A DNA stretch of 64,000 nucleotides from Catajapyx aquilonaris (Eukaryota), in NCBI GenBank assembly GCA_000934665.2, contig JYFJ02000128.1, positions 62,001-126,000 on the forward strand, written 5' to 3'. How positions within the stretch are numbered: position 1 is the stretch's first letter; every line of letters begins with the position of its first letter. The position numbers were made by a program, and so were the translations under genes. The notes under the pieces are model-generated. The model searched no databases and was not told where the DNA came from. It saw only the letters and a program-made list of their open reading frames with translations. This document shows positions 20,359-48,810 of this stretch, piece after piece.

Positions 20359-20443
20359 GAATTTTTGTCCCACTGCTAGTTACTGCTAACTTAGTAGTAC
20401 CAGTGTTGGCAATACTGTTAAATTAGCAGTGGGACGAAAATTC
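20359..20443. repeat. Inverted repeat/hairpin with 20-bp arms (19/20 match)
   Basis: gaatttttgtcccactgcta (20359-20378) pairs with tagcagtgggacgaaaattc (20424-20443), and the spacer contains nested near-palindromes. Confidence 0.85.
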
Positions 20444-23400: not shown

Positions 23401-26400
23401 TTTTCCGCAAACGAATTGTTTTGCAGACATGCCTTAGCGCCTTGGCTTGTCGTTCAAGAGGTCTCAAGGAGGCTGGTGAGATGGGTTTTCAGAAGAGATT
23501 TTTGGCCTGGATTCAAGCAGGGAAAGGACCACAATGTAAACTCGGTTCATCAGTTGTTATCGGGGCTCTTGACACACTGTGGACGAACAGAGAGATCCGA
23601 CTGATACCAATGTGCCGAATGGGGAAAGAGTCATTCGCCAAAAATGACACAAGGAGGTCGACGCTAGATGATGAATTCTGTTTACAGATAGACGCTATTA
23701 TTGCAACGCTCCCCCAAAAAAACGGTGCAAGTCTGCAAAATTCTGTACAGTACCGGCCACGCCCTTCGCAACAAGTTTGCGAGCCTACAGAAATGCACTC
23801 AAGGTCCATTTGGCCAATGACAGGCGGATGTTCAAAATAATATACAAGTGCCAGCCTTAGGGCATCAGTACAAACGGAAAAAAACATGCCGCCTCCATTG
23901 GAATGACACACAAGACTCAGCGAGTGGCAATTCAGCAAGAGAAAACTTACCAGCAGGTGAGAAGAGAAGCCGTTCGCACTTTGCAAAAAAAGAAATAAGC
24001 AGGGGTCGGCTGCCTTCAAATCTTGGAACCAGTTTCGTCATGCTCATTTTAGGCCTTATCTATAACTCTTGGAGACGACCGGAGTCTGGGGTCAGTAATA
24101 TCTCTGATGCATCAGGATTTCCAGCATCCCGTTATGGAAGTAGCGGTGACTGGTTGTAAAAGAGCAGCTTGCGAATGGTTAAAAAAATGTAATTGACAGG
24201 TATGTCTAAAAATTATGTATGTGAGAATGGTAATGGCGGTATATTACATATGATATAAGTACCACGCATAAGCAATACAATTAGGCATAATGGACCATAA
24301 GTAATTGTCAGTGTCTTGATTAACAGTTCTTTTATTTATCGAGTCGTTTTATGTTTAAATCTATATATTTTGGGAAGTTTGTTCGCTATAGAAATGTAGC
24401 GGCTTAAACTAACATACCAAACCTTCAGCATCATTTGATGACCTGAATAGTTTATCCACGTGCCACATCCACACCTCCAACTCAGGTGCATACAATATAC
24501 CAGGCGCGTCTCTTCAATCGCCTCCCTCACATTTCTACTTTATAATTAGACCCAGAGATACACCGCAATCAGACTGACCTCCTCCAGACATTATTCAATG
24601 ACCTATATAACCATTCATATACTGGCACCTCGCCCGGACAGGCTGCCGCAATTCGAGATATTGAGCCCCTGCCTACCCCCCAAGATAAGACCCCGGGAAA
24701 ATCCCCCATACAAACACGCGATTAGGCTGATGCGGTCCAACACTTTAAACAAAGTAGCAATTTTTCCTTCCCCTCAGCCAGATCTAATTTCCGTCAAGTC
24801 ATCACTGCAGGAAGTCCGCCAAAAAAAAAGGCCCAGCCGCAAACCCCTCCTTTGCCACTTAGCAAATTCCTCATGAGTGGTAAGCTATCTTCCTCCGGTT
24901 CACATTACCCCTCGCTCAAACAACTTCCCATAGCCGTTTTCTGGAACGGGGGCTACCATCTCCATCAGCATCCTCCTGCCGAACCTTTCTTATCCTGCTT
25001 TCTCCCCTTGGGGAATCCTAGGGAAAAAAGACGGGAAGCACAAGGAGGCAGGAAGCAGACTTTGGGAACGAAAATTTGGACAGAGGCGTTGAAGAGAGCC
25101 CGTCTCTCGCAATCCCTTCCAGTCATCCATCAAGCCAAAAAATCTCCACCAGTAGGAGACGAAGGTGGGTATAAACTATAGGACCTTTATACAGAGAACT
25201 GGTTGGAATGGGAGAGATAGATCAGTGAGTTTTGCGAGCGAGGAAACTTGGAAAACGGATGCACATATCTCTCAATTTCCGATTACGAGGAGAATTCCGG
25301 TGTATCATTGGCTACTGCTATAGCTAGATACAATAGCTGCAAGGGAGTAATGATTAGTGGTTAGCCTAGTCACGTAATATCCAGACCCATGGATACATTG
25401 TGCAAACGTTGCAACAAAGTTACATTAAGCTTGCAACCGGGTGAATGGATGTAATTCAGAGTCGAAATAGCATTAAGCAAATTTAAACAACTGAACTAAT
25501 TTAACACTAGTGGCAACATTTCCATTCAGTGTTACCAGGAATTGCATGGACTCAAATTATTTTGTGCTTTTAACTCTATCAAAGAATTTTGGATGAAAAT
25601 TTGCAACTAAATTATGAACTCGGGTCTTAAGACAAATGTTGCCATATATTTGAGTTAATATTTAATTCCAACTGACAGAAAGGCTATTTCAAACCTGACT
25701 TATTGAGTCAACGCAAAGGAAAATGGGCTGGCCCCATATACTGCAGGTCTCAGGAGGTTATGCCATTAATATTGAGCAGAAAACCACACAACATAATTTT
25801 AAAACGTGGGCTATTCTCATACTGTATACTGTACAGTCGAGTCGAGGTTAATCGGCTTATGTTATCTCAAAAAGACCTATTTCGAAGTGGGAATGCTTAG
25901 ATAAGAATTGTCGTAATTCCGATACCATGCGCCTACGCTTATTTTTTAATGAAGTGGTGTAGTAATGAAAGGTCATAAATACAGATAGTACATACTATTA
26001 ACACGAGAAAGATTAGTTTTCCTCAATCTCCAGTCGTTTCAGAAACGTACAGTTTTTTTTTTGCCATAACGGGAATATCGCTCTTTGTAGGACTGTCCCA
26101 AAAACACTGACAGCTGTAACTGTGCTTTATGACGCCCATAAACATTTCGACTGCTCATCTCCCTCATGAACGACCAGCAGTTAACTAGTTGGCTTATTTT
26201 TATTTTTACGACCTCAAAACGGACCGAATTGTCGCCAACACCTCATCAGAGGTTGGGTTATTCATGACATCGCAGCTGTGAATTTTCTCACGCACCCTAT
26301 AACCGAAGAATATAGTGTGTTTCATATAAAAACGCAAACAATCGCAAAATATAGCAATGTGATATGTTTCACCCTCACACAGGCTCTGACAATGACTGGA

Positions 26401-29400
26401 TTTTTTTCTCCTAAAATTCTGGAATATATACACATTTGGTCTAAAAGTTTCTAGGGAGTCTCTTCATTCTCCAACAATTCATTTATGAAGAAACACTGAT
26501 GAGATTCTGCGTTCGGAAATTCACATGCCACAATATACTTCCTCTATACATACTGACACGCTTTGTAGGTCTCGCCTTGAAGGTGTTTGTGGACGTGACT
26601 CGATTCAAATGCAGGGTCCCCCGATATAATCTCGAATATGATGAGCACTCCTTCCGATTCCCTTCGCATTGTAACAGGCCAACACTCGATTCGTATCGAT
26701 ATCACGTTTTACTAATATTCTACTGTCAAGAACCCAACGTTCGCTTGCCCAACTAATTATTATACTAAACGCAACCTCACTTTGTTATTCTGCATGCAAA
26801 TTTTAAGCTGTTTGTTTACAAGCTGGACGTTTCATTCGATTGCAAAAAAGTGCTATCATCCTTACAGCCCTTAAATTGAAAGGTTTAATACTGCTACACT
26901 TGTTATAATGTTTCAATTACAGTTATTTGAGCGATGCATTAGCTCGTACATTTTTATACCATCCTCTTTGGGGCAGATCTTGAATATTCAACAAAACCAG
27001 TTTGATATAAGATAATCAGTCCCGATGGAAAACGCCGCTTTCATCTTGGATCAAAAAAAGCAGTTACGACAACGCCAATAAACAAGCTAATTGCGATTTA
27101 ATTGGCAATCAAAATGGATGAGCCTTACGCAAAATTCCACTACCGGCATGAAATATGACTCTTACTTGTACTTTCGGGGTTTCGTTTCAAAGTGACGTTA
27201 GGTTTATTGCCGGAAGGTTGCACCATAATGCTCAACACAGCGTGGTCCATTAACAAGGCTGAGATTGCGCAACTGAGATATTATCAAAATGCTTCGGGCG
27301 CAGTACAATGCGCTGAATTGTCCAAGAACTACCCAATTTGGTATGTCTCATGGGGGCCTTACCCGCTAATTCTCAAACTGGCATAAAACCGCTTCGATCA
27401 TCCGTATACATGAACAAGCGAGGATAACGGCATCGAAATGTATTATCAAACAGCTACACCACGTCCGATAACCATTGACGTGCATTGATATTCCCTCCCA
27501 AAGTAATTGCCTCGTATTTAATCCCTCCTGCAATTCATTTCCACACACTCTCTGCATGATAAAAAAAATTTAATCACTCCCAGTGCTGCAAAAATTTGTC
27601 ATTTTAATCAAGAGCCGGGGCTCACTCCTAAAAATAGACCTAGTGATGACTTTCTAGAACTAAATTTCTATAGGCCTACTACTTTTTTCCCCACCCCGTC
27701 AGGTCCTCATCTCTTTGATGTCCAGAATCCCTCACCTTCCTTTTACACCGCCACCTGAGGCCCATTCATGACACCTGGCACCTCGTTCTTCTCCATTACA
27801 CAAAAAACCGCGCACAAGTGAGTTAAACGAGACAGCGATCCTCTTTTTTTCCTATCAATACCAGAATCCTATTACGTCACTTGTGCCAGAACCAAATTTT
27901 CTGAGGCCCCATGAATCCTCTTATCCCCACTGTAATTGGCACGGCAGACCAATAAGCCACACGCCCCTCTCTTGACTTTTATTACTAGCAGTTCGCATGA
28001 CCGAGTCTTGCGCGCCCAGGATTGAACCTGTTATTATTGGTGCTCAGGAAGCGTACAAGTGAGCGTGCGGCGTATGTTTCACTGATAGTAGGTTCTTTAA
28101 AAAATAGGGAGGGATTATTTGAGAGGAGCGTTATTAACGGGGAGATGATTTAGGAGCTGTCGTGAAGAGACGGTTCAATCGGGGTTCGATTAACTTGAGA
28201 ATTTTGGTTCAGGCTTAGCAGTAGGGAGCTTCGGGGCTAAATATATATATTTTTTTGAAAATTGTTTCCATGGTTGGAGGGAATATGATACCTAAACAGG
28301 GTGGAATACAGCGGGTCGTGTTTTAAAAAAGCTAAGCGCTTGTTACCTGATTCGCATATAAACAGAAAAGCCTCTCTGCTACACCACTAGAGGCATAATG
28401 CTGCATTATTTTTTTTGAAGCCTGAGTTGCAATGGGTGTCAGTCACCCTTAGCCGTGATAGAGCATAATCAATGTTATGGCGCGTTCCACGTGCATTCCT
28501 CTACACCGCGTATTACAGTATACAGGTGCTGCACGAGAGTACAGCTATATGGTCCTTGAACGGTCAGTTGATCATGTGAGTGCTTCAATGGCTCACATAA
28601 AACAGGTGCCACATCCCAGGGCTGTTTAGCTTCATTGAGTGAGTTACGGTGTGTTCGGATGCAGCAGTTGTCAAAATATGTGTTCCCCTTCAGTCATGTC
28701 ATTTTCTTGCTTTTACAGGCCTACAGGCGCTTAGCAGGCAGGAAGCAGTAACACGCTCTTGTATGTTAAAACGGGACTGTATATTATATCTGCGTCAGTT
28801 CAACTCAATGACTGTAACAAGTAGAGTGGCTTAATCCACTGTACATTAAGCAAAAACTAACACAGAAGTTATTAACGAATGGACCTACAACTGTATGTAG
28901 GTCATGCTTGTGTAATGGATAAAAAGGCGTGGTGAAAAACATGCACAGTAGTCTAGAAAAAACACTAAATATAAGCAATGTTACATGTTGATTCGAGTCA
29001 TACAACTGGATACACCTACATCTTATATTAAACAATTTATAGGCCACAGCCGCTTCCTTCCGTCCCTATCCCATCCCCATATACGAGAAGTAAAAACTAA
29101 AGCAAGAGTTCCAGATTAAAAAAATATAGTGGTATCCCACCCCCCTAAGAGGGCCCATGGCTCTAGCTCGGGGTACAAATTATATTTATTATTATTTATA
29201 TTAAACAATTTCACCTTGTCATGAATTTGCATAGCATGTGCCGCATACAACGAATGCAATACCAGAATATATCTGTCATGTTATATGCTTATGGACATGT
29301 AACTTTTCTGTTAAACACGAACATCACTCAGGCGTAACAGAAATTACAGGCTTTACCCGAGGCTTTACCAGTGTAAAAAAGCAAACTCAATTATTAATTC

Positions 29401-32400
29401 TCGGCCAATCCACAAAAGTGTTGACTATTGAGAGCAAATCAAGCAGATGACTCAATCATCTCAAAATGAAAATTACTCCAGATTTAGCTCATAACATTTG
29501 TAAAATATACAATGTGAATTGTAGTCATACATTCTTACTCACCGTGTGGGTTGGGCCACTAATAGCCCATAACCTTTTCCAACATAACATAACAATCGCA
29601 AAAAATGCAATGTGTCGTATAATTCGCAAATAAATACATCAATTTTGACTTCATAAAAAACCCACATCGAATAGCGTTGCATCTCTAGTCTAAGCAAATA
29701 AAACAGTCTTCACCACAAAAAAAACAACAGGATAAGCAAATTCGGCACGGGAAGAGATTTGAATGGGCGTGGATGACACGCGGGAGACATGTAGCAAAAG
29801 ATGTTGCGCTCCGGTGGCCAAATATTTGCATACGAAAAGAAGGCGCGGGGGCAAGGACGGAAGGAAATGCTACTCCTTGCACAGCATCCCCCCCTACCAT
29901 ATATCTCGATCTGGCAACCGACCGCCCGCATTTTTGCATCCGGACAAACCCCCGTCGTGTGTGTGTGATCCCAGCTTAAGAGCCTTTGTGGACTAAATCT
30001 GCCATCAGTGTCAGAGCAAGTGACAGCCGAGTTCATAATTCAGCCTAAAATCCCGCTTGAAGTACCCCACCCACGGCTCATCGCTTCAAGTGGTATCTGA
30101 TTCTGCGTCACCTCGACATGTACTAATCACTCCTCTACACGAATACGCTCAGAATACGGAGAAAGCATGGGTTATCACCTAGTGGGCTCGGAAAGGTTCG
30201 GGAAACATCGCGTGCGATCGGGCGCGATCAGGCGCGTCGGGATGCAGCGTGCACCACACTTTTTCACAGTAATCCCATCTGTTAGCCAAAAACCATAAAC
30301 CGGTGCCAGCCCTCTCCAAAAAAAATCGGAGGCAGACGCGTCTAATTTTGGAACAGCAAATCCTTAGTTTTAGAGTTAAGTGCGAAACGACCACTTGACC
30401 TTAACGTACTCTTTGGACACTTCCCCAGTATCACTCAGGCTCAAAATAGAGGCGGAATAAAAAGGGGTGCTAGGGGCTACCCACAAAACGGGTCGAGTTT
30501 GAGGACCATTGCACGTACGGGACTGACTGAGAGACACCTCCGGACATCGCCTGTTTATCAACACTGCTCACATGTACACGTACCGAAAAGAGTCGCGTCA
30601 GCCAGTCGGGGGTCGCCAATGAGATGGGCAAACACAGTCCAACAGACGCCTGGCCAAACAATAGAACAATCCGATGCTCGGGGGCGTCTCTCATACTTTT
30701 GTTTCCTTAGCACCGGTACCAAATCTGATATGGTTCCTGGTATTATGGAACGTTATTTCTTCCAGGCTGTCTCAACTAGTGAGACCTAAGTCGGTCCAAC
30801 CTTAAAGACTCCGATTTCTAGCCAATCGATTATTGGGGAACAGATTACATCTTCTCTTACTCGAAATCTCCTAGAGGTTGCGGATCATCTCTCGAGGAGG
30901 GTGCGACATCCCCGGAGTGGTTCACAATCTTCGAGGAGTATTTACATGTCAGGTGAACTTGCCTCCTGAGGGCAAACTTCATTAGAATTCATGATACGCT
31001 CAAATATTTGAGGGACAGCAGTCGACAAGTGTTTCATTTTCATGTGACGAGAAGTTGTTGGATTTATTTGTTGACGAGGTAGCATTTCTTTATACAAGTC
31101 CTGCTGTTTCGCTCGACACCAGCACCTACAAAGTGAGGTTTACTAACATTTTCGCAGAGTCGTAAATAACTATAAAAAAATGCGACTTGTAACAGTGGCT
31201 CACGGGTGTTCTTATATCCTGTTTTTCCATGTAGAGTCCTGACACTTTGTAGCGTTAATACAACTGCTGCCGGACACTTTTCATTAACTTTATGGGTATA
31301 CAGGCATGTAATTACATGTTGTACTGGCATGACTAATGTACTGCACTGCATGTGCTTGACAAAATAAATGTCTGCTGTTCGGCACATATTAATATGGGGT
31401 TAATTCGTAGTTTCGCATTATTATTAACGACCACAGAATTATCCATAATGTAGTGGCCTGTACATTACAACGTGTAACTTGTACACCACGGGATACTTCC
31501 TGGATGACGCGACCAATTTTTCCATCTTAGCACAAACAAGGTTTTCTCCATTACTGCTGAAACACCTGAAACCTGAAATAAACCAGCTCTGAAAGTCACA
31601 ATTTTGGTGGTCTGGATCTGGACACTTTTCCCATGACGTTTGAACTATCATGTGCCAGTTCGGATCTGTTGAAAATACTGTACTAATAACTACGGTGACA
31701 TTTAGCTAGTGACTGCATGGCAACCCCATTCCGATTGTGCCCTGTAAGCAACATAATGAGCTTCTCTGGTTGCACCCGGAATATGGTTGGCCTTCAGCCA
31801 CGACAAACACGTGACAAAATCTGCCTTCTTGACACAATTAGTCATGCAGAAGAAAATTCTTCCTGAAAACTAATCATGGCACTAGTCCGGACTGGAAATC
31901 AACAAGTTCTGCCAATAATTATATTGTATAACATGTCGTGATTTTTTCCTTTCATAAGAGCAACCCCCTAAAAGGCATACGCGCCTTACTGAGAGTGGCC
32001 TGCTTATGTGCTTGTTGATACTTATAACTTCCGCACGTGCTATGTGTGAAGAACAAGTTAGCGCCACGTGAAGTTTCAAGTCATAGCATAGCCGAGTTGG
32101 CATTCTCCGGACCTTCCCCGTGACATCACCCTGGTTGTTAGTGGAGCAATGTTTCCAGGAAGGAAGTATTTATTAATTTTTTAGCCTACGCAGCTTAGTT
32201 TATTTTGTCAGGTGGATACCAATAGACTGGTGACTCACTTCCATTGTGGAGCATATCAAAAAGGCATAGTGTTGCATGTATAAAGTAGGCATTATATGCA
32301 TAAAGCATACATAATTGAGGTAGTGACTTGGGCTGTGTACCCTGACACTATACTCAAGAAGAATAATGCCCTCATCCTTTCCTTAATTGAACACGACACC

Positions 32401-34319
32401 CTGCATCCGACCAGCACCTTCGCCTCGCAATCGCACAGTGCGCCTCATCAATCACAAACAGCAAACCGCCAGTCCTCCTACCTGGCGTCCCAACTTTTGA
32501 TATCCCTCCGGGAGCACCCAACCTGACATGTAGCAGTAAGCAATCCATAAGATTGAATCCCAAGCAGCCCCATCTAAGCCTGGGAGGGCAATTAAAAAGG
32601 ACTGTCCCCCCTTGGGGTCTCATCATCAGAGAAACCCGGTCTAGGGCAAACCCCTGCAATTTTGCCGGCGCCTCTATGAGAGGGAAAAGGGTGGCGCCAA
32701 CTAAGATTCTTCCCGGGGCGTGAAATTGACAAATGAGTAGCTGGGCGCAACTCGGTCAAATGAGGCGTGCGATGCAGCATCAGGGTTGCCATGACGCGGT
32801 CGAAAGAGGACGCCACCAGCACTGGTAACACTGCTGGTTGGCCGCCATTATGGATTCGATTAACCGGGGGTAATAAGGTCTCGTGGGGATGAACCACTTC
32901 AAAGAGAGAGGAAGGGGTGCATGAAGTTGACCCAGGTCAATATTAGGTGTCGACGGAAAGGTCAGTGTCCCACTTGCCTGACCATTCATGTCAGAGCAAA
33001 TACTGGAGATCAAGAGATCCTCAGAATCTGGCTAATCAGTGTCAATCCAATTTAGACCCCCTTTTTTTTGAAGAGGCGCCAATTTGGTTTTCATGTCTCC
33101 TTCGGCCTTTTTCGTGAATGAGTCCTTGAGTGGATGCTGAATGGGGAAACTTTTCCTCCAGCTGTGAATGGCCGGTAATTTGAATGACTTGACTCTGAGG
33201 TGTTTTTCTGGCTCGCTTGGGACTTTTCCTCCAACTTTTTTTGGGGGTGGGACAAGACCCCTGCGAAATATGCCTCACTGCCCTTGAAACGTTCCGTTTT
33301 TCGCCTAGTCTAAAAAGGAATGTTTCTCCTTTAGGTTCGTTCAACCCCTTTTTTCCCTAGCTACTTCTGTGCGTGCGGTAGATAACGTCGCACATATCCA
33401 GCTTTATCTCCACCGGATTATGTGTTGCCCCGAGTCGTGCATAACCGGCTGCACGTGTTTTCTACCGGAAATAAATTGGCTCTTCATAACGCACCCCATG
33501 ATATGCAGGAAATTCCGAAGCGTGAAAATTAAAACGGGGCGATGGACACTATCGGAAAAACAACAATGCTCCGCTTGTTTCATTAATAGGAGTTAATACT
33601 ACGCATCATTAATTCAGCTATAAAATTATTAACCTACAGTGTTATGCGGCAAAGCATGCTTGCCTCACAGTCACCGCATGTGAGTTATAGTCTTGGACAG
33701 GCACTTCTCATTCCATAGTGGCTTGTGTATGTGAATTTTATAGAGCATAATTGAAATTAAATAGCGACGGTAATTACAGCTTAACTAATAACTGGGTGTG
33801 TCTATACACTGTACTTGAAATGATATTAAATAGAAAAGACCTGGGGACTTCCATTGTGAACTCAATAATACAGATGATATTATTTTACCCACTCAAATCC
33901 AATGCCAGATTGTATGTAATTGAACCCGTTTGACCATTATTTCAGCCCAAACAAACGTTTCGCAATGCCTGTGGTCATAACAGCAAACCTTACGGAACAA
34001 TAGGTCTACATCAAATAATAAAACTACTCGCCCCATCTCTATAGGGCAACAGTCGCTTCTCTGATCAAACACTCCCAATTAATTTTTTCCCTTAAAAAGT
34101 CACCAGATATCCTGGACGCAGAAAAAATTCACGTCCCTATAACCGCTGCTCGTAACTTACATTCAGCCAGATTGTTACCGCAAAAATAATTGGTCTCCAG
34201 TCTTGGTTGGTTCGGTGGAATCAACTACCATGCTCGTACCTTCTGCGGCTGTTAGTCACGACCGAGGCTTAATGCCAATTATCCATTTTCTATGCATACG
34301 GAATTCCTGCCTCCTAGTC

Positions 34320-34346
34320 ACTCACCTGAAAGGAAGAAAAGAGAGA
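34320..34346 (-). promoter_or_regulatory. Candidate recursive splice site (ratchet point): tctctcttttcttcctttcAG|GTGAGT
   Basis: An uninterrupted pyrimidine tract plus CAG is directly followed by a consensus donor GTGAGT. It is on the perlecan sense strand, inside the 43.5-kb intron. Confidence 0.65.
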
Positions 34347-37300
34347 CTTTATCAAAAGCCGGTGGATTTATGTCGGAAACCAACCTGTATGACGGCTACT
34401 GAAGCCATAAAACACTGTACGTCTCTGATTAAAACTAGTTTCCATTTTCACTCGTACAAGGTCCTCATTAACGGAACAGTGTTCTGCCAACTTTTTTTCG
34501 CGGAGGCAGGATGTTAAAGAGCTCATGTCAAAACACCTAAAGTCACTTCAGGTGCTTTGGTTGAAATAGGCACATGATTCAATTGGAGCGTGCACATACA
34601 CTTTGAATACAAATATGGCTGCAATGTGTGTTGCTGTTGCTGGGATAAAAAAAATAATCCGGACACAATTTAAAAACATTGATGTATCTGTCCAATCTGG
34701 GTGTCATGGACAAATACATTCCACATGATAAGTTAGTCACAATTTATTAAACAGGTTATCTACAAAATAATATTTCACATTGCAGCCATAAGTCTTTCGT
34801 ACGCTTAATTTTTATCTAAATTGGTCCAACTATACATGTCTTCTCTAATGTTTACCCACAAGTTCTGTCACTTGGATAATATCGTTGCATTTATTACAAC
34901 CCATGATAATATCATCTTTCGTCGGCACCATTTAGAAGTGATATCCGTACCATAAGCGGCATATCGGGGAGACCTAAATTAACGCTGTGCACACATCCAT
35001 TTTGGAACGTCCCCCATACGCTTGCATTATTAGGCCAGTCTTCAGGCGTCATCAAAATGACACCGCGGTTTTCATCAGTTAATTTATGAGGCTTTCCCCC
35101 CCAAAAAATGATAATAACCATTCGTGCCTCGGGGGTCGTGGGGGTCACCCTGTTCAGTCACCTTCCTTCCACACCCTCCATCCATCCCCTATGAAAGATG
35201 CCGGAAACCATCTCCAGTGTTTCACACGTGCCGACCTGCTTCTGGAATAACTCATGCGGGCTATACCACCCCCGTAGAAGCCGATTTGGTATTCACACCC
35301 ACAGCCACACTATTTTTTTCACTGCCGCCCCTTTCGCACAAGGTGTTCCAGAGCATTCTTCCAAAAAAAAATATATATGTAAAATCTGTGGAATCACTGT
35401 AATTATTCGGCCCACTTGAATGTGCATTCTCTGGATTTTGAGATTTTTTTTTCTGGCACCTACTATTATGCATTTTTAAAGTGTTGAATAGGTAAAGGAT
35501 GCATTTTCCAGAAAATCCTCCGTAGTTCCCGTATCTAATCCAGTTAAATGGTTTTTTAAACTTAAAACAATGGAATCTTTCTACACATAATTTCCTTTCC
35601 ACATACGTAATTATTTAAATTTTCTGCACAGTGGGGAGAGTGTAAAAAGGTGTCGTAAGTGTAAGATAAAAAGGTAAGTGTTCATATAGTGTATAGGCAA
35701 CAGCAGAAAGAAAAAATGCATAGAGAAATATATTCCTCCATGACTTTTTAGGAATCACTAATGGTCTCAAAATGTATTCTTTATGGTTCTGTTGCATTGT
35801 TTCTAGAAAATATCAAAAAATAAATAATTTTCCGAAAATTCTTGCCGAAAATTGTTCACTGCAGGTGGTTCAACTAAAGTGAAAAATAGTTCTACCTGTT
35901 GCGGTTAATTTCTGTTTTTATAGTTTGGATGAAAAATCCGCCCATATACTTATTACTGCGATTAGACGCAGTCACTCCACTTATTTACTTTGACTTGTGA
36001 ATGGAAATTCATTCCATTTACTCCATATGTTAATTCAAAATCTTTGTACATAAATAAGTGAAACAAAATGTTCCCTCCGTTTGTATAAAATTTTGAGCCC
36101 GAAGAAGACATCACTGCCAATAATAACATCCTCAAAAATTTACGGACAGTCCCCCTGCATACCTCTCCAGTAAGTAAACAAATATGTCCAAAATTATACC
36201 CCATGTTCTCCAGACCAAATTCTGCACATAATGTTACAGATTCTATGGAACACCCTTCACATTGGTTAGGATGCAAAGGACGTCTATAGGTACGGTCCAG
36301 AAACCTATGGGGGAGATGACTTTTACGAGATGCTGCCTTTATCCCTGAGGCTACATGATGACTCAACTGGGCTTCCAGAAAGGGAGAGGAGCAGGAAGGA
36401 TGAAGGGAAGAAGGGGGAGAAGGGAGTCCCAGTTTAACCCCTCCAGCCATCTTCTTTCACCCGGCTCATATTTTGCGCATAAATTATTCAAATGACTCCT
36501 GCCTTTCCCTTCTTCTTCTGTTAATGAGAGATCAAGACCACCGAAAAGGAGTGGCGCTTCTACAAAACTTTGAATATGTATTTTTTTTTAAATAAAAACT
36601 TCAACCATACGTTTTTTTTTAAAAAAAATAAAAGGAGCGCCCCTGTTTGGAGTGTCAGCAGGGCTGAGTGGGCCACGTGTCGCGTCATTTACGGGTTTTA
36701 AGGATCCTGATTACGCTGGCTAATTATAGGGATTTCCATCCCCACTTTTTGGAGGTCTAGGAGAGGGGGGTGGCTTTTTCCACAGTCCCTTTTATTCAAG
36801 CTAGTCACGACGCGGCACTTAGAAAGAGATGGGGCTTTGTAAATGAACCGAATCGACTTTGTAAGGGGGAGGTGATATTACAGCGATGGTTGACATCGAG
36901 CGAAAAAAAACTTGCATAATTATCTCAGCCACTTTTTTTCCTGGGAGGCAGGCAACCATGAGCTCATCTCTCATTCGCAGGGTGCGTATGTGCCAGGATA
37001 AAATTCCAAGTGGTGAAATATTATGCTGGGATGAATCATACACACACTGGGCGATTTTTCAGAGGCGGACTTCAAAGCGAGCTAGAAATATTTAAAATGT
37101 TGGCATAGTACACATGGTCCTTGTTAGCGCACCTAAAATGAGAGGAACAGTGCTGATATACGTCTACATTTTAATGTTATTTTAGTCCGAATTGCTGCTT
37201 CTGTACAGCAGATCTCTTTGTCACAACGACTATGAAAACGATACCCTGCAGGCTGCATAAGCTTGTAAAAATAACACGTCCGCTTCATCTCCGCATTTTC

Positions 37301-38489
37301 TCTACCGCATTTTCGAAAAACCCCTTCATATTCCCTCTTGACTTTTCCTGCATGTATTCCCTAAATTACACACAACCACTTCCCACTTTTTACACACAAA
37401 AATCCTCGCCTCCCCATAATCACCATGTCAATGCACTCTGACAAATTGGCCCCACCTCATACCCCCATAGTTCAACACCTCGGACAACCCCCCCATCCTT
37501 ACCTGATCTCCCCATGATACCCCAGGCTCCAATCCCAGCCTTCCTATTGGACCCTTTTTGTACCATCGATCCAGGCGGGCATTTCAGATGCTGTCCTCGT
37601 GCCCCCCTCAACCTCCCCTATAACCCCCCCTCGAACAGTTTACAAGTCATAAATCCCTTAATCTGACCCGATAATGGGAGGGAGAGCTAGGCCTTTTTCT
37701 CCTCTCCCTTGGTTGGGCAGTGTCAGGACATTTTTTGGTGTAACCCCCCCCCCCTCCCCCCTTTCTCTTTTGGCCACCCCCCACATTTTGAGTGAGTTTT
37801 CATTGGCATGCATGAGGCGGGCGTCGAGAGGACATTAGCGCCCGTGAAAAATGAGCCGCGATGAAAGGTGTGATTCTGGGAGATAGAGAGAGAGGGTGCC
37901 TAGTCCGGTGCTTTTAATTGGGAAGGCCCGGCAAAAGTTTTTAGAGGATGTGGCATATGTTAATTTTACAGCCCTCCATGTCCTAGAGAGCTTCATATGC
38001 CGCTAATATGACTGGAATATTATAGTTTCAGTGGGGTTGATGTTTCGTATTGCGAAACCTGACTTTTTGCTTGGTTTTGATGGATGGGGCTGGTTCCTAG
38101 CTAATGGCCTCGCAGAAGGTGGCCGTATTCATTTTCGCGAGGGTACTAGCAGCTATAAGCAATGTAATTATAGAGCCTAGACTAAATATAAACCAGACGA
38201 GAGCATCGCGCGATGCCGGTTATTGTACGGACTGTGGGTATATAAATATTTCCAGCATCCGAACCGGACCGGTTTAGACAAATTTGACTTGTATGTATAG
38301 CTAGTACGACTTCATACCCGCAAATGTAACATCAATCGTCGGAACAAACGCATTAAAATCACAAACGACAGAATAGCCCTTTGACTATTGCAATATCGGT
38401 TATTCAACATAACACAGATACACCACAGATAGACGTAATGACCATTGTAATGCCATGTAACTGCCAGTAATTACATGAAAAAGTCATTT

Positions 38490-38700
38490 AATCCTGACAT
38501 CAACGCAACGTCTTTGACCGGCCCGACAAGTGACAAGTGCACATTAGGCGCTGTCACTCTCCCGGCGTTAATACCCAGTCTCCAATCAAGCTGAAAGTCC
38601 CCTGTGGGACACCATTGCTGCCATCCTCGTAAGTGAATCGAGCCTTGGCGCACACTTGGCCTAAACCTTGATATTTTCCCCTGTAAGAAGGACTCTCCCG
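38490..38700 (-). mobile_element. Non-LTR reverse transcriptase remnant
   Basis: GVPQGT at about 38596-38613, followed in another frame by HLSLVGPVKDVAL, which sits where the YADD region would be. Confidence 0.4.
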
Positions 38701-41700
38701 CGCTGGGTGGTGAAACCATAGTGAACACCTTCCCTTGAGCAAGGCTACTCTTGTACTTTTTTCTCCAGGTCCCTTCCCAGCCTCACCTATTCAATTACGG
38801 GGCGCCCTAACCAACAGGTGTCTCGATTTGGAGGGAGCTCCACAGGAGAAAAACAGGAACATGAGATCAGCCTCCTGGATCCTCGCGGCATTTGATCCAA
38901 GCAAGGAAAGGCTAAGAAAGAACACTTCGCGTGCTGAGGGTCTCCAGAAAATTGAATGAAACCCCGAGCACCAGCCTGTGCTGCAAAAACCTCTCTCAAA
39001 AGCTTCCTGTACGCCTACTATACTCTCTAGGGTTTGCTTTTTATGGGAGGGCTTTCCCGCCGTAAATGGAATGTATGAATCGAGGTCCCCCTGCCACATT
39101 TCTCAATGGGTGAAGCCAAAGAGAAAGGAATTTTGATGCGACACCCCAAACTTGGCTATGATCATGAGGAAGAGCACAAGTAAGGTATTGTCCAAGGGTG
39201 TGCTTCACAATCCATATAAAGCAATAGAACACACAAATTGCCTGGAAACTTTTGTTGATATGTGCCAGCCGATACTGTACAACATGTAGTTAAATAATGC
39301 GAAATCGTGCAGTGCTACCATATACTGCCACAAGGTCAAAATTCGCGTAAAGATAAAATCAGCAGTGCCCACAATAGCAACTACTATCAACAAACTCTAT
39401 ACCGCAATATTACGCAAAAACCATTACGCAACTTCTAGTACACCCCTTTTCCTCCAACCGCAAATCCCCGTACGGCACAAGGCCAACATTCCATAAATTA
39501 AAATAATTAAAACCCCTTCCAGAGATACACCCTTCAGCAGACGTTCCATACGCACATAAATAGTGATCTCATCTCCCATGAATGAACCGTGGGCCGGCCC
39601 ACATTAGCCGTGATTTAATAGCCGTCTCCCGCCCATGCACTCAATCACCCCCAATCTCTCAATAGCATTGATTCAAGATTGATACTTTTTATCATGGTGC
39701 TTCCTGTCTGCAACAATGTCCGGTAGTGTACGTAAGTCCCTTCAAAAAAACACAGTGTGGGTAGCACCCGCACCCATTATGTGACCTTCTGGCGGAGTCC
39801 TTCACCCGTCGGTACGATTGAATGCGCTGGTTTTCTCTAGTCGGAATATCACCCACGCAAAAGCAGCATCCCACATGCGTCTGAGTCGCACCACAGGGTT
39901 CGGTGTCACCAGTGGTGACAACAAAAGGCGTGGTTCTTGAATGCCTGCGAGCGTTGCAAAAGGTGTCAAAGTTACATGCTCCGGCTACTTGAAACCGTCT
40001 AATTAAATTAAGGTCTGCTTGACCCCGGTACGGGTCCGTAGAAAATTAAGACGCGTGGTTGCATCCAGCCCCCCCTTCACCTGGGCAAACACTCCACCAA
40101 CCTGTCGACCGCATTCCTCCAGTATGCAAATGTGGGGGTGTCTGATATCATCACGGCTTGAAACAATCCGGCTCCCTGTCTCCAGGGCGTTGTCGCGCAA
40201 TGGAGTCAAATGGTAATGGTATTATTGACACTTTTTGTTGCATCGCGTCGTGGGTCGTGCGATAAATAGTGACCATGACTTTCAGACAATGGGTCATATT
40301 CATATGTAACTGGTGGACGAAGACAATTAGTTCACACTAGTCTCGGGCTATTTTAGTCCACAATACTCTCAGACTAAGGCGTTTAAGCCAATCTTGTCTC
40401 CCGAGTCATATCTTTAAAAAAAATTAAAAAATCGACATAGCTACAGTGTGTTGTTGTAAATGTGATCCATAACGTGCATTTATTGTCGACAAAAAATAGG
40501 CGATATTCGGGATTTTTCCCTATTTTCTGCTCATCTCTGCAAATATTTCTGGTCACTCGCCGGAACAGGATCCGGGCACATTCACATCGATGGAATACCG
40601 CTCACAAAACCCTTGCCACACAGAGTGGTCCGAATGGCACTCCACTCTTTTTGGAGGCTCAAACTAATGTCTCTCTGGAATTAAACTAACGTGCATCAGC
40701 ATGTGCAGTTTTTGAATCTATTGCTTAGCATATGAGTTTTGGCTGGCCTGTATCAACACCCTTAACACCAGACACCTGGACTCATCTACATACACCAGAC
40801 GCCCCACAAAAATATCAGCATCACATTAATTTCTGTAGACAGATATACGCAGGAAACCGAACGCTTCGCCGGGTCTCTGCTCTTCACTTCACCCTCACTC
40901 GCTCACACTCACACACATGCCGACAACATCCCACGTACAAACGTGCATGGAATATGCAAACCGCATTACTACCTGCTGGCCTCATCTTTCAAGTGGCTGA
41001 GAGAGGACCCCGGGTGAACAAAAAAGATGAAAAAAACGGGATAGGATTTTTTGGGGTCGTACAAGGCCATATTATGAACCCAGGTGGGTGTGATGTTCAC
41101 GGGTAAAAGTTTTGTCCTACGACACCCCCCTTGGTTAGGCCTATAATCCTAGCCGAGCTATATGCCCTTGCAAACCAGATCACACCCCTGTTGGCAATTC
41201 AACAAGATGCGTGAATCACCTGACCTTTTCGAAGGGGAATATTTGAATCATTCGTAGTTCATGGCCACACTGACCTTCTAGCTTCTACAGGTTGTAAATC
41301 TTTCTGAAGAGGTCAATAAACAATGGGCATCACAACTTTATTCATTTGGCAAATTGGTAATCGGCCTGTGGACATCTGACAAGCGGCCTCCAATTAGGCC
41401 TACCTGACAGGTAAGTCACTGGTGGTCCGCTGATTATAAAAAAGGTGACCTCCTACATCTTGTCAATGTCTGGGTCGCCGACGGCAACCTTGAGACTCCA
41501 GTCCATTCCGTGCTTCTTCAGACAGGAGAGCTAAGCATCCCCCCGGAGAAGGTCAGATAGGAAATCCCTTCCGACCCGGTGCATCACTTGGCAATCTCTC
41601 AAACAAGATGTTGCCAAATGTATATTCAATTTATTCCTGTTCGACCCTCAAAAGCATGTTCACATTACATAAGTTTGTTTGGAATTCACTGTCAGCACTT

Positions 41701-44700
41701 GATCTTACAAACACATACCTGATGCCAAAATTTACGAGGTCACTCGATGCCCCCCATGGCCTCAGTTTACACCTGTGAAGTAGCCTAAACATATCCCACA
41801 GTTTGAATAATTGTGGTATCGCCCCTTATGACAGGCTGACATTGCTTATGACTCACACCCTGTACTGTATAGAATAAAATGAATGCTCCAACTGGTCCAA
41901 TTCGTATTCCTTCCAGCCACTCCCCATCCTATACTCCTCCTCCAGTGTGCCAAAAAACCACAGACCTATTTTTATCTAAGGCTATCTCTTCCAACACCCG
42001 GAAGCAGACTGAAGCAGCACGGGAAGTGTAGGCCGCACCTATAAAACCCCTATATTCTAGGAAAGGTGGCAGAAAATTCCAAGCTAAAATATGGCGATTT
42101 ACCCGTCTAGTTCACTTCCTGAAACTGTAAAAATCCAGCCCGTCCATAAAACCTAGAGGACTCGGCACGTGTTTACTTCCCATAGGCATGCGATGGATTA
42201 CAAATGGCGGGGAGGGGTTGCTCCTCCGGAAAAGATCAGGTGCCAAATTGGGACTTGCTTCTCGGTTGCCAAGGAATCCGGCGTCTTTTTAGTGTTTACA
42301 CGGTCCTGGTATAGGCAAACTGTAGACCCTTGCAATGGCCCATGGCAACAGCAACCACAATGGAAGAGAGAGAGACAAAGAGGGCTGCTTTCGAGTCGTT
42401 TAATAGCTACACGGTTGTTAGGTGTTCACTGATCTGTTGGCGATGGTGCCAAGTTGCATAGGGCTCAGTATACCGCATTTTAATTAATAATGCACAATTC
42501 GCAAGTGTATCGGTTTCATAACTCATCCAGATCCACACCTGTACCAGACGTTTACAAGCCGCTGAATACATTCAAAATAAACGAATAAACAGATGGCCAT
42601 GTTCCCATCAAACAACAAGCCTTACTCGTATAACACTCAAAAATAGACACACTATTTCAAAAAAATGGCCGCCCGCATGACATCACTGGAACCAAAGGGT
42701 TGCAAGTCCGGAAGAGCATGAAAACAAAGCCAGCTGCATGTGTGTAACAATCGGCATCAAATCTGCATACACGTGCGTTGAAAGGGCTACAGGAATAAAA
42801 ATTTGCCCTCCTATATACCACTTGATGTTTCTTGGACCAGAAGAACATTCCTCCGGTTCAGGGACACAACTTGAAAAGAGCTATGTGAAGAAGGGTCTGG
42901 GGTTGGGTTAGGTGGGTGGGAGTGGGAGGGGGGTAGGATATATTATGATGGGAGGGTTTCTTGAGAAGGAGGGCAGCCCCCCCAAGAAAAGAAGAAACAG
43001 TCCAGATTTTCTTCTCATCTTCTTCCCAGCCTGAAATTTTCTACTAAATGTGGCTTCACAGCTAGGGGTTTCTCGTTTTTTGAAACGTCTGCTCGGAAAT
43101 ATTTTAGCCCAGTTACGTCAATAGGCTGCCTCGCAAAGTTTGTTGTGGTGGGTTAGGGAGGAAAAAATTGGGTGTAATTATTTTCTCTCCGTTTCGTCCC
43201 CTCTCTCTCTAGTATATATTTTTTTTTCGCCAAAAAGCGAGTGGAAAGTTGGAATGTATTCCACTGACAGCGAGTGCTGTGGTTTCCACGTCTGGTTAGG
43301 ATAGGACTGCGGATATTTTACTTCGTCTCCAAAAAGGCAGACTTCGCCTTGGAAACATAGAGTGAGTTAAGCAATATACACCGCATTGATAGAATTCGGC
43401 GAGAATTCTTCTCAAATGTTCATCCATGCATGTAATTTATCAGGACAAGAAGTTTAAATCATTCATAAGCATTGGAAGATGGTTCTAAACACTTTTAGGA
43501 ATGTCAAAACAAATCAGCCCTAAATCTGCTGTAAATTAAGTTACTTTTCTTGCTGTAGCAAAATATAGCTCGCCATTTTGCATTACGTCAATTTCCATTG
43601 AGTGCTCTTTTCAAATTTAATCACCAATATTTCTTCCAACTCGGTGGCGCCTTTTTGACACCCAATACTCTACCGGGGATATACATAAATGAATATATGA
43701 ATATCTGAATCCGACTCCCTCATTCAGAGCCGTCTCACGTCTCGCAAAAGCCGCAATGCAATACCAACATGCAGCAAACTGACCACAATTTCCTGTGCAA
43801 TCTAACACGTGCGAAACGTCCAACAATACCTTCCGTCCGACAAACAACCCGAAACCGGTCTCTGCTTGACCCCAACTTATAATCGTCCTCTAACCTTCGA
43901 TATAAAAAAAGTGATTCAACCATTAACAATGTGAGACCACTGTTATCGCAAATAAACGTGAACCGCCTCTAGACCACAACCTACAATCAACATCGACCGC
44001 GGTGAAACAGAAATGATCGTGTACAAGACAGGCCTTAAAATGCGCCTACGTCCGGAAATTAAATCGAGCCAGTAGGTCAAACTACCAAAAAAAAAAGTCA
44101 AACTACTTAAAAAAAAGTCAACCGAAAAACAGCCAAACCTTACCTCTCGAAAATTGTAGAGAATCTGTAGCAAAAACGCTCGCCGTCACTCTGGAGCCGA
44201 AAGTATCGACTTGGAGAAGAAGCCAAGTATAGAAGGACATGGATTTTGGCCAGCCATAAAATATAGGGTTTCTACTTCTTTTTTGGAGAATTGCTAATTT
44301 GCAAGCACATTTAAAGGGTGACTGTAGTTTGGGACAGTGATTGGTTATCGCCATTTGCCAATATTTGGTTTTTTTGTGTGTGTACAAGTTGGGGGGGGAA
44401 GAGTCAGTGCTATCGCTGAATTTCCTGGTTGCCACAAAAGCTATTACAGATAAGAAATTATTACTGTTTCGCAGCATGTCGTAAATGTAGTGCATTGCTA
44501 CTGTTCTCCGCGCTTATCGTCCGGAAGTTCTCGTATAAACGCGCGTTTCGAGAAGTGCGAGCAGATACGATGAACCAAGTTCAATCACTCAATTGCTTTT
44601 CAACACTCGACGATAACGATTTTTTTTTTCCTCTGTGTGCGAACCGTTACCCAACAGCTGAAGTGTGGCACTTCCATTCGAGTTCCCAACCCGATTTGTA

Positions 44701-45419
44701 ACTGAAGCGCTTTTTCTTCTTTCTGCAAGCTTTTACCAGAACTTGTGGGAATGAACTATAGGGCATCTACCCTACGGTACACTTCAACAATTTTTATCGT
44801 AAATACTGTCGCTTCTGTCCTAGCTATAAATTGATCATTTTGGTGTTCTGTGGAGTGCACAGCTTTTTACTGTTTACTAAATTATACCTATGGAATATTA
44901 AATCGAAAAAATGTGTCATGTAACGAAACACATTTATTTACATTATTTATTAAATTTATTGAAACTGATTCATTATGTTAGATAATTTCAGAGAAGACGG
45001 GGCTTGCTCATGCGCTGCGAGGGACGTATCGTCACGAACGTCAGCCAATGAAAAGCCTTTGATCCAACGTTGGCAGCGTGTTACGCGCGCGCTTCAAACC
45101 CGCGCAAGTCCCGGTCAGGACACAAACATAATACCCTGAAAGTTTTCCGGTATGTCCTTTTGCTCCCTGACTATGTTTCAACGTCAAATCATGCCCAAAT
45201 TAACTGCTCTGCGAAGCAGCCCTGCAGTATTCTCGCTTCAATTGCCAGGCTCCTGCAAGTCTCAAAAGTTCAAACCGGCATCTGGCACCAGGGAATAGAA
45301 ACTTTTCGTCACGCACTCCCATGGATTAACTCTACCCCAAACTCTGTCCTACGAAGTAATTGCATCCCTGGATTAAGCCAAGAACAGCATTAGTATTCAC
45401 GCCCAAAAGCCGGCTCCAA

Positions 45420-45680
45420 AAATAAACCCTAGGTACTAAAAATTCGTGTCCGACGATCGCGTGAAGACAAAGAACTGGTAGGAAACCAAAACAAGGCATT
45501 GCATAACGCAACCTTGCGTAACTCACGCCCCAAACTCGCTTGTAAAACATGCGCAAAGGCGGCAAAACCGGTAACAAGAAACCTACTGCACCCGACCGGC
45601 TTAATGCATACCCCGGTATATATTTTTAGTCCATAATTCACTTTTTTTACAAGCCGCACATCATCACCCACGTTGTCATG
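45420..45680 (-). mobile_element. Possible Ty1/copia reverse transcriptase remnant
   Basis: DDVRLVKKVNYGLK resembles copia V.RL.KSLYGLKQ. PLRMFY...GF...CL...VY follows in an adjacent frame. Confidence 0.3.
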
Positions 45681-47175
45681 TGGACGATATTTCAAAGGGT
45701 GGATAGAATAACAGATTACAGGAAACCATACATTTGCCAGATGATGCCAGTTTAGTTATGCTAGCCAGCGTGTGGTGTTGGTTGACGATGCATGATATCA
45801 GAAGAGTTTATAGCTAGTGATTCGAAGGTACGCTGTCCCAGTCTCACAAAATTCATCCAGTTTGTAGCAAAATTAAAGAGTGTTTTTTTTTTTCTGAAAC
45901 TCTCATGATTTACGCAGAAGCAACCTAGTGCACCCACAGCAATATCCTGAAAGCGGCAGTTATCTTGAATTTATGAAATGGAGTTTCCCCGACCTTCGCT
46001 TCGTTCGAACATATCTTATTCATCCATTGAGCCTGAACCGCATCCAAATCCCTCTTATGTTTACTTTCTCACCGTCTGTCTCCCCAAGAAAATCAGCCTC
46101 CCTGTGAAACATTACATGGTCAGTAGCGACCTACAGTATAATCAGATTGATAGTGATCATGATATGAGAGCCCTCAACACAACCTCTTTAAATCACGATT
46201 GAATAGTGTATCTCAGCTAAATTGCTCCGTATAAATCTGGTCGGAATGTCGCAACACCAAAAGATGAACCCTCCTTCATATACACCCCTCCAGGGGGCAA
46301 TTTAGGTTGGCCACTGCTCACGACATTGCCTCATATCCAAGGCTGAGTGTGCGTGAGCTACAAGACATGACCTCCTTCCTTCCTGCCTCAAGTAGGCAGC
46401 GAAAGTGTCCCTTTCGCTTTTCACGTTTTCAAAACTAGACACATACACTATACACCCCCCCCCCCCAAAAAAAAACGTGCCATCTTCTGGCATTTTGGTC
46501 TTAAGATGAAGACGTCTGGGGATTAGCAGCCAACTGGAGCGGATTCCGAGCAGTCTTGTGCAGGCGGCCACTCTTAAGTGCTGATTGTAATTCCTCCTTC
46601 CTAGTTCTGCATCGATTCGACCTTAAAATTAAAGCGACTGAAACAAGAAGGAGAATTTTTTGGGTATTCCAAAAACGCCACCTGCTTTTCGACTTGTCTT
46701 CAGCTCAGGAGGTAAACATTCGAGACGTGTGGCTACATAATGAGGGAGGGCGCCTGTTAAAATAAATAAATTGGGGTGTACTCGGAAAATAAATCACCAT
46801 GACCTGCCTCGCCTATTTTAGCTGCGGAAGAAACTAGGGTGCTGGTAGGGGGGCAGAGAGAGAAATGGTCCTCTACTTATGTTACATCCTGAAAAGTTTC
46901 GCGTCCAGACAGACAGGGTCGCATTCCTCCAATTGTTTCAGCACTGCACTTCGCCAAATGCAATTGACGCGACCGCTTGCACACCTGCTGCACTCTACAG
47001 TATCCGACGTCTACGTGTTCTTCTCCTACATGTCTCCTTTCTAATGGTAATTCATTCTGGAGCTGTACTCTAAGTAGAACACTTCATGCAACTGCAGCTG
47101 GCAATGGCTCCGAAATTCGTGAAAAATTAGGGTTTAGTCCAGACTTACAGTATTTCTAAGTATGCCTAAATAATA

Positions 47176-47176
<1 letters not shown>

Positions 47177-47233
<57 letters not shown>
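47177..47233 (+). repeat. (ATT)19 perfect microsatellite
   Basis: Directly visible. It produces the poly-Ile spurious ORF 47134..47334. Confidence 0.97.
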
Positions 47234-47235
<2 letters not shown>

Positions 47236-47379
47236 ATTTGCGTGAAACCACGACACATAACAAGTCCATAATTTATGACATACGTGGGCAACGTGGCTAA
47301 CTGTGATTAATATGCAACTGCAACTCGCTAACAACAGCAGCTCGGATCGTTACGTGCCATAATTGTCCCCACCTGGACA

Positions 47380-47490
47380 AATCCGCCAGTGTTGATTGAC
47401 AACATCGCCAAAAATCGTCCTCTTGGGATCACAAAAATGGGATGAATAATTCACCATGAAATCACAGGCTTTCCCAGCAGAAGTCCGATA
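47380..47490 (-). mobile_element. Possible Ty3/gypsy integrase-core remnant
   Basis: TSAGKACDFMVNYSSHFCDPKRTIFGD resembles TA..VA.F.....FG.P..IISD. Short and divergent. Confidence 0.25.
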
Positions 47491-48639
47491 ATTGCCGAAA
47501 CAACCCGACGATGAGAGACGACGTTTAAATCCAGTCCCAGGCAAGTGTTAGGAAAATCCTGGCGTCTCCATCTCCATTAGACCCACCGCAGGCACGTGAA
47601 AGATGGCGTCGGCGTTCCGGGGGTTGATAAAGAGGTGGGTATTGACAAAGAGCCTCGATTAACCACCCAACCGGCGTTTTAAGTCCCCCGCACTCAACCG
47701 GCTCTATAAATGAAGCTTAGGTCGGAACACTGGCGACACCCACCAGCGCTAATGGGAAGGCTATTAATTGTCATTGTTCGGAGGGGTCCGGAGAAGAGAC
47801 AGGATTACCACCCTTTCCACCAGGAAGTTGGCTGAATAAGTCCTGATGCCGACGATGTGATCTGACTTATAAGTATGGGAAGGGATTGGAAGTGTAGCCG
47901 ATCCTTGATCTTTATTTATGACGTCAACTTGTGCTGTCGAGAGTTTCTAACCTGGGGCAGCCCCCATGACACTCCTACCCCAGGCGTATGGAAATCTCCT
48001 CGATATTACCTGCTGGCCCCATAGGGAGGGTTTGAATTGGCGGTTTGAGAGTCTTCGTCCGCCGCCAGGATCGCCACACACTTGGGAACGACACCAGCGC
48101 CGAAGCGGCAACCCACTCCCTACAGTGGAAAGCTGATATGGGCACACGATAAAAGGAGAAGTTTCCTGTGGCATATTATAAGACCGTGACCAGGGGACAT
48201 TTTCTCCCAACTCAGGAAAAATAAGTAGGAATGTGCGTTACACAATATGATGCATCGCAATGCCCTTATATGCCCACGGTGAACACAATAGGTCGAATTT
48301 CCCCATAAGTTTCAGGGTCATCCGTCCGGTTTCTCCAGAAACTTCACGCCGAAATTCAGGTTTCTTTTTGGTATTTTATACACGACTACTTATCAGATTT
48401 TGAAATTTACGTATCGTGACACTATACACGTTTTAACGACTAATAACATCGAACGTGGACGCGGTACTGTACATTAAAAAAAAAACTAGGCAGATATACT
48501 TCCAGGTGAGCAAACATGCTCTCAGGTAGAGAAGCTCCAGGGTGTTTGCCCCAATTCCCTAATCGAATGAGACTGTACATTGCAGTACACTCCAAGTTGC
48601 AATTGTAGCCGTGCAATAACAATACTACCGTTCCAGGGA

Positions 48640-48810
48640 CATAAATTCTCACCTGCCAGGTGCGCAAGTCTGCTGGGCTAGCCCTGATCAAATAATGGTC
48701 ACCCATTTGCCACAGGTTGTATGAAGGACGTGATTTCCCGAACCGTGTAACCATTACACTGCCCATTGACGAGGTCTCGGGTTACTTGATGGTCTTTCTG
48801 ACCTTTCATC
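48640..48810 (+). mobile_element. Possible Ty3/gypsy integrase zinc-finger/N-terminal remnant
   Basis: TCQVRKS...SPI...TLP...SGYLMVF, with an internal stop. Confidence 0.22.

Follow-up and report, generated by a model that had tools for sequence, protein, structure and literature searches.

A perlecan-like gene of Catajapyx aquilonaris with a candidate recursive-splicing ratchet point in its long first intron

Sequence analysis of a 64,000-nucleotide window from Catajapyx aquilonaris (contig JYFJ02000128.1 of assembly GCA_000934665.2, positions 62,001 to 126,000 of the forward strand) was carried out on a gene that lies on its minus strand and is predicted to encode a secreted, perlecan-like protein with repeated low-density lipoprotein receptor class A (LDLa) modules. 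The element of interest is a composite motif inside the inferred first intron of this gene (17654..61153 on the minus strand, 43,500 nucleotides (nt); all coordinates are those of the window), at which an acceptor-like sequence directly adjoins a donor-like sequence. An earlier note on this DNA had proposed that the intron is spliced recursively at this motif, that is, at a ratchet point where the removal of one part of the intron recreates the donor for the removal of the rest.

The gene model opens with the coding part of exon 1 at 61154..61255 on the minus strand, an ATG and 34 codons with a signal-peptide-like hydrophobic core, which ends in phase 0 as AAC CAG|gtaagc and is translated (61255-61154) as MGIELWTARRLLLVVVVLCCVQQQQLWAEDVANQ. 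It was the single candidate returned by a scan of the minus strand of the window upstream of exon 2 for an ATG, a hydrophobic core and a phase-0 GTRAG donor (R, purine). Directly upstream of it, at 61400-61600 on the same strand, are found a G-rich stretch (gggggatggagagggggaactggagaggggg...), a run of 14 A and one N at 61509, an uncertain assembly base; this segment may be a promoter or 5'-untranslated region (5'-UTR). Exon 2 (17167..17653, minus strand) is bounded by the acceptor ttcattacag|AGT and the donor ccag|gtgagc, starts in phase 0 and ends in phase 1. Its 162 codons plus one base encode an acidic, Thr-rich sequence with a run of T, an EGSGIG motif and the string DDEDENGSS, and it carries no signal peptide of its own.

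The three exons that follow, all on the minus strand and all of phase 1-1, are exon 3 (13884..14018) and exon 5 (11649..11762), each an LDLa module, and between them exon 4 (12671..12850), an atypical LDLa module with a linker. Two of the three open reading frames (ORFs) holding these exons match the Pfam family Ldl_recept_a (E 5.3e-09 and 1.5e-10) and the third has the LDLa cysteine pattern; taken together, the exons form a coherent gene model. In the roughly 11 kb of the minus strand past exon 5 (1-11400), no additional exon with an LDLa-like or otherwise Cys-rich sequence was recognised, which suggests another long intron after exon 5; that segment held no ratchet-point motif in the window-wide scan of AG|GT sites, the one search that covered it.

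The candidate site lies on the sense strand of the first intron, 61.7% of the way along it, with the acceptor G of its AG at +34326 and the donor G of its GT at +34325. Its core occupies 34320..34346 on the minus strand and consists of a pure pyrimidine (Y) tract of 19 nt (34346-34328), AG (34327-34326) and the donor GTGAGT (34325-34320). The minus strand of 34320-34346 is tctctcttttcttcctttc-AG|GTGAGT, and the minus-strand read across the junction is ...aaagtctctcttttcttcctttcag|gtgagtgactagg. The acceptor half ends as ...cctttcag|, with T at -4, -5 and -6 and hence TT at -5/-6. Upstream of it, TTTTGAT (34351..34357, minus strand) fits the consensus YNYTRAY and is a candidate branch point for the site; its A, at -27 (+34352), has a U two positions upstream. 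The pyrimidine tract of the site is stronger than those of all four inferred acceptors of the gene, and none of the gene's five inferred donors surpasses its donor in strength. The two N bases of the window, at 4820 and 61509, are both distant from the site.

The composite is rare by every count that was made. The pattern Y10-N-CAG-GTRAGT has a single match when both strands of the window are scanned, at 34320-34339 on the minus strand; dinucleotide-preserving shuffles gave an expectation of 0.01 matches, with one of 100 shuffles yielding a match. Among the 433 AG|GT sites of the window (191 on the plus and 242 on the minus strand), the candidate at 34326/34325 alone passed a joint filter for at least 14 pyrimidines in the 20 upstream positions, a YAG and at least three of four donor matches. 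As shuffles break up CT-rich tracts of low complexity, a second, empirical null was computed in which such tracts of the window are kept. The sense strand of the intron contains 2488 AG, 168 AG|GT and three AG|GTRAGT. Strong acceptor-like sites, defined by YAG and at least 16 of 20 Y, number 11 on that strand, so that 0.013 composites are expected there by chance (11 x 3/2488). TT at -5/-6 occurs in one of these 11 strong acceptor-like sites, the candidate itself. On an ad hoc composite score the candidate reaches 28.0, with the next sense site at 20.5 and the best antisense site at 22.0. Pure pyrimidine runs number 26 of at least 15 nt, 19 of at least 17 nt and 12 of at least 19 nt in the window, and the candidate's run is the one among the 19 of at least 17 nt that has AG directly after it. 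The candidate motif is real and unusual for one intron.

The observation of the earlier note is borne out by these data. It had described a pyrimidine tract and CAG abutting a gtgagt donor on the sense strand, which is what the minus strand of 34320-34346 contains, and had called this the strongest such composite that it found in the intron. Its coordinates are right, and so is its division of the intron at the site, which would yield segments of 26,828 and 16,672 nt, summing to 43,500 nt.

No repeat of at least 60 nt (within the window) was found in 17654-61153, none of its 64 ORFs of at least 90 amino acids (aa) contained a Pfam domain above the cut-off, and there were no Rfam matches. A nested gene or transposon was considered and set aside, as no Pfam match exceeded the cut-off and the two sub-threshold ones (E 0.008 and 0.006) were dismissed. 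Longer pure pyrimidine tracts, of 25-31 nt, are seen elsewhere in the intron on both strands, at 36402-36426 (minus), 37744-37771 (plus) and 50581-50611 (plus), and none of these three adjoins AG|GT.

The site was also interrogated for coding capacity and for donors further downstream. The frames upstream of the junction are open for 14, 23 and 7 codons with no Met in any, which excludes the end of a coding alternative first exon. Downstream of it a stop closes each of the three frames, within 3, 0 and 1 codons, which excludes the start of a coding cassette exon. The site is therefore not a coding exon boundary. Two candidate cryptic recursive-splicing (RS) exons start at the junction. The one of 86 nt (34240..34325, minus strand) would end at the donor aag|GTACGA, with 6 of 9 consensus matches, and lies out of frame, its fourth codon being a stop; the alternative of 165 nt (34161..34325, minus strand) would end at aat|GTAAGT, with 7 of 9, and contains in-frame stops. 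A further donor at +222 has 7 of 9 matches. Since exon 1 ends in CAG, its ligation to the GTGAGT of the candidate site would give CAG|GTGAGT, a donor with 9 of 9 matches to CAG|GTRAGT.

A preprint by Duff et al. (10.1101/006163) reported 197 fly ratchet points in 130 introns of 11.3-132.7 kb (mean 45.2 kb), which are divided into segments averaging 18.0 kb (median 16.4 kb). There, branch points lie mostly at -36 to -21, the pyrimidine tract is more prominent than at ordinary acceptors, and 196 of the 197 have TT at -5/-6, compared with 43.76% of introns overall; RNA sequencing is also stated to have confirmed 91 of the 160 fly ratchet points predicted earlier by Burnette et al. (10.1101/006163). 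The text consulted from Pai et al. gives a high-confidence recursive site for 63% of fly introns longer than 40 kb and places such sites toward intron midpoints (PMC6110457). The Catajapyx site resembles the zero-nucleotide ratchet points of Drosophila (Ubx, kuz, osp, fz, luna) in its (Y)n-NCAG|GTRAGT structure with TT at -5/-6 and a strong pyrimidine tract, in its position on the sense strand of an intron longer than 40 kb with segments of about 17-27 kb, in its candidate branch-point motif near -27, and in the weaker donors and non-coding content downstream. It differs from them in its non-drosophilid host and in being known here from sequence alone, and its donor is GTGAGT where the two fly motifs compared have GTAAGC and GTAAGT (PMC6110457, in part). 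Judged by its sequence, the site appears to have the features published for Drosophila-type ratchet points.

The signature of such sites had been extended beyond Drosophila by Shepard et al. in 2009, who tabulated ratchet-point sites (RP-sites) per 100 kb in introns longer than 50 kb and on the complementary strands (PMC2773006, Table 2). The densities on sense and complementary strands were 2.196 and 0.101 in fruit fly, 1.029 and 0.000 in mosquito, 0.807 and 0.101 in beetle, 0.484 and 0.122 in bee, and 0.540 and 0.066 in sea urchin, an excess of sense over antisense of 4 to more than 20 times in the large introns of these five (PMC2773006). From these densities it can be deduced that about three-quarters or more of sense-strand motifs in insects exceed the background. 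The Catajapyx motif is of the same kind, being a sense-strand motif of a large invertebrate intron that stands far above antisense background; unlike it, the entries in the tabulated part of that study are genome-wide densities that name neither individual sites nor genes and concern introns longer than 50 kb, against 43.5 kb here (PMC2773006).

The nearest individual case is that of the locust NPF1 gene, whose 230-kb intron 2 has a predicted recursive site with support from U2AF65 RNA-immunoprecipitation, published in 2022 (PMC8892266, in part). It shares with the Catajapyx site a non-drosophilid arthropod host and a branch point and pyrimidine tract upstream, and was predicted with the Burnette motif matrix. 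The locust site has its U2AF65 support and a proposed regulation by PIWI-interacting RNA (piRNA) and hairpins, whereas the evidence for the present one is confined to its DNA sequence (PMC8892266). A further parallel is offered by the vertebrate RS-exons described by Sibley et al. in 2015 and in later work, where AG|GT likewise regenerates a donor and recognition goes by way of a cryptic exon further downstream, one that is usually skipped; the vertebrate sites are few and mostly found in very long neuronal genes, as summarised in the excerpted text of PMC8605326. In that text Joseph and Lai describe fly ratchet points as working via a short cryptic RS-exon of about 50 nt, whose downstream donor is usually weaker than that of the ratchet point; RS-exons are poorly conserved and usually out of frame, and some in flies are expressed (PMC8605326). 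The Catajapyx donors at +86, +165 and +222, with 6-7 of 9 matches against 9 of 9 for the regenerated ratchet donor, agree with this order of strength.

Based on this combination of features and on the published frequencies of such sites in long introns, which are favourable, we consider it probable that the candidate site is used for recursive splicing, as a Drosophila-type zero-nucleotide ratchet point for the long first intron of a perlecan-like gene with LDLa repeats and a secreted product. In the proposed course of events, RNA polymerase II would pass 34326, and U2AF and U2 would then recognise the pyrimidine tract with its AG and the branch point near -27, a recognition probably aided by exon definition with the weaker donor at +86 or +165. 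Exon 1 with its terminal CAG would be joined to 34325 while the first 26.8 kb leaves as a lariat, and the ligated product would read ...AACCAG followed by GTGAGTGACTAGG. The CAG|GTGAGT so recreated is predicted to out-compete the weaker cryptic donor and to be spliced to exon 2 at 17653, by which the remaining 16.7 kb would be removed, leaving a final mRNA the same as after splicing in one step.

Several observations weigh against use of the site. An AG is present at -23/-22, on the stretch that separates the proposed branch point from the acceptor; it is 4-5 nt from the branch A, a distance probably too short for it to serve as an acceptor. On their exonic side the best-scoring of the downstream donors are poor, and the candidate RS-exons of 86 and 165 nt exceed the roughly 50 nt typical of flies (PMC8605326, in part). 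The intron itself depends on a gene model inferred from reading frames and splice consensus alone. The site was picked post hoc as the best of its intron, and the chance figure of about 1% applies per long intron rather than to a whole scan, so that a large scan will contain chance cases. In vertebrates the ratio of sense to complementary density is merely 0.9-1.5, according to the consulted part of PMC2773006. Finally, orthologous DNA was not found in a metagenome scan with the composite Y13-TTTCAGGTGAGTGA; eight loci were recovered, and by BLAST they share with the window merely the motif, over 24-31 nt.

As to these eight metagenome contigs (L001-L008), about one would be expected by chance on a rough estimate, and three of them (L004, L007 and L008) are related to one another, with 89.5-100% identity over 43-325 nt. 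These contigs could come from eukaryotes and bear ratchet-point-like sites themselves, or else the matches could be coincidences of low-complexity sequence.

A rival explanation that we regard as rather unlikely, and still deserving of attention, is that a CT-rich low-complexity tract happens to adjoin a donor-like nonamer, and that the spliceosome ignores the composite or uses it as noise. Pyrimidine runs are indeed common in the window, as counted above, the intron has three AG|GTRAGT on its sense strand, the choice of the site was made post hoc, at about 0.01 expected per long intron chance cases will appear once very many windows are scanned, and conservation was not found, the metagenome matches being confined to the motif. 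Against this, an expectation of 0.013 is far below the density of selected motifs in large insect introns, where the sense strand has 0.5-2.2 per 100 kb and the antisense strand 0-0.12 (PMC2773006, Table 2). Coincidence would also have to bring together TT at -5/-6, which one of the 11 strong acceptor-like sites possesses, a well-placed branch-point motif and an exon 1 that ends in CAG.

A decidedly unlikely possibility is that the site marks an edge of a genuine non-coding or poison exon instead of an exon of zero length. It would then be either the donor of an alternative 5'-UTR first exon or the acceptor of a regulated exon with a premature stop, or of a terminal exon, of 86 or 165 nt. The first-exon variant calls for an internal promoter, for which the CTCTC tract, GAGAG on the other strand, may be a GAGA-factor-like motif. 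Each half of the motif would serve such an exon well, CAG|GTGAGT alone being a perfect donor and Y19-CAG alone a perfect acceptor, and candidate downstream donors exist at +86 and +165; expressed RS-exons are on record for the fly (PMC8605326, in part). With no Met upstream and all downstream frames closed, however, the exon would have to be non-coding or would truncate the protein before the LDLa modules, and a transcript starting at the candidate site would encode no secreted protein because exon 2 lacks a signal peptide. Moreover, the juxtaposition of acceptor and donor is left unexplained, and the reading as an acceptor with a poison exon is mechanistically the same as an RS-exon. It can also be supposed, with very little probability in our view, that the site is a landing site or decoy for the U1 small nuclear ribonucleoprotein (snRNP), that is, a strong intronic donor kept against premature cleavage and polyadenylation or cryptic splicing and without any recursion. 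U1 snRNP bound at intronic donors suppresses premature cleavage and polyadenylation, the donor is a perfect match to the consensus and the intron is long; this explanation nevertheless gives no account of the 19-nt pyrimidine tract, the AG, the TT at -5/-6 and the upstream branch-point motif, and the other two AG|GTRAGT of the intron have no such tract.

It could further be imagined, though at present we hold this to be highly improbable, that the ratchet point does more than passively assist removal of the intron and acts as a regulated switch for a proteoglycan of the basement membrane, at a site that a non-dipteran arthropod lineage has conserved. Whenever the ratchet donor is out-competed or masked, the stop-containing RS-exon of 86 or 165 nt would be included, leaving an mRNA that is cut short ahead of the LDLa modules or is degraded, so that perlecan output would be tuned by splicing. 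If this were so, gene-specific recursive splicing would be extended from neuronal and developmental regulators to a gene of the extracellular matrix.

The favoured reading, use of the site as a ratchet point, would if correct provide a gene-specific instance of Drosophila-style zero-nucleotide recursive splicing outside drosophilids and in an extracellular-matrix gene, where the known recursive examples are dominated by neuronal and developmental regulators, and one data point on how widely invertebrates depend on ratchet points to remove introns longer than 40 kb. The concept itself would be unchanged by it, as enrichment has been in print since 2009 (PMC2773006, in part) and most very long fly introns are already recursive in the consulted account of PMC6110457. 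There are practical consequences as well. In annotation, a strong AG|GT of this kind could be mis-called as an exon boundary, and in genome editing of the intron, damage to the donor is predicted to force the stop-containing cryptic exon into the mRNA, as is described for fly kuz and Bx in PMC8605326 (in part).

With regard to novelty, the earlier note knew of no description of recursive splicing for perlecan in a non-drosophilid arthropod, a remark that calls for correction. In the literature open to searching we found no description linking recursive splicing with trol or perlecan, the latter co-occurring only in the title of a reference; for fly trol, the name and two FBgn identifiers presumed for it are absent from the supplementary files consulted for PMC6110457, which concern S2 cells and have a main table keyed by FBgn, a weak negative. 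AG|GT recursive splicing as such is well known, and outside drosophilids both the enrichment of the motif in mosquito, bee, beetle and sea urchin (2009; PMC2773006, in part) and the locust case (2022; PMC8892266, in part) had been published.

The same note had named the gene perlecan, a label that we retain as plausible and not established. Exon 4 matched one protein among 13 candidates, P0001 of Culex tarsalis (923 aa; 48% identity, E 2.4e-16), which carries 10 LDLa stretches and is itself named a putative LDL receptor. Exon 4 aligns best with the first LDLa of P0001, preceding linker included, and exon 5 aligns with the second at 54% identity, a later module scoring slightly higher. When the N-terminal 430 residues of P0001 were used as query, four further mosquito proteins were found, two with perlecan-type names and the others named sortilin-related and uncharacterized. 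The layout of the gene, namely a signal peptide, an acidic region containing SG and then LDLa modules (domain II), is that of a perlecan N-terminus and is not exclusive to perlecan. No exon for domains III-V (laminin-B/laminin-EGF, Ig-repeat, LamG/EGF) was recognised in 1-11400, and these domains, which define perlecan, would lie outside the window. The name is supported in part, in short, by an LDLa exon 48% identical to a Culex protein, two of whose four relatives have perlecan-type names, and orthology is not established by such a match. Within the DNA itself, it is this one match that points to an arthropod.

Exon 2 contributed little to this assignment. Queries made from it, which ran 17 bases (five whole codons) beyond its donor, found no homologue in a word-indexed search of proteins of 295-2000 aa and gave no match at E <= 0.001 in an exhaustive phmmer search of 1.84 billion representative proteins; compared with P0001 directly, exon 2 showed no significant similarity (best E 0.25). 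Two resemblances to P0001 were noticed, neither of them significant: DLIFDEES against DLVFDDSS, which lie about equally far from the N-terminus in the two, and EKPKNVERPK against EKPKNVHRSQ. The region of about 200 residues that precedes the LDLa modules of P0001 has no evident counterpart in the gene. The LDLa module of exon 3, in turn, sits upstream of exon 4, whose best match is the first LDLa of P0001, so that an additional LDLa module may be present at the N-terminal end in this gene.

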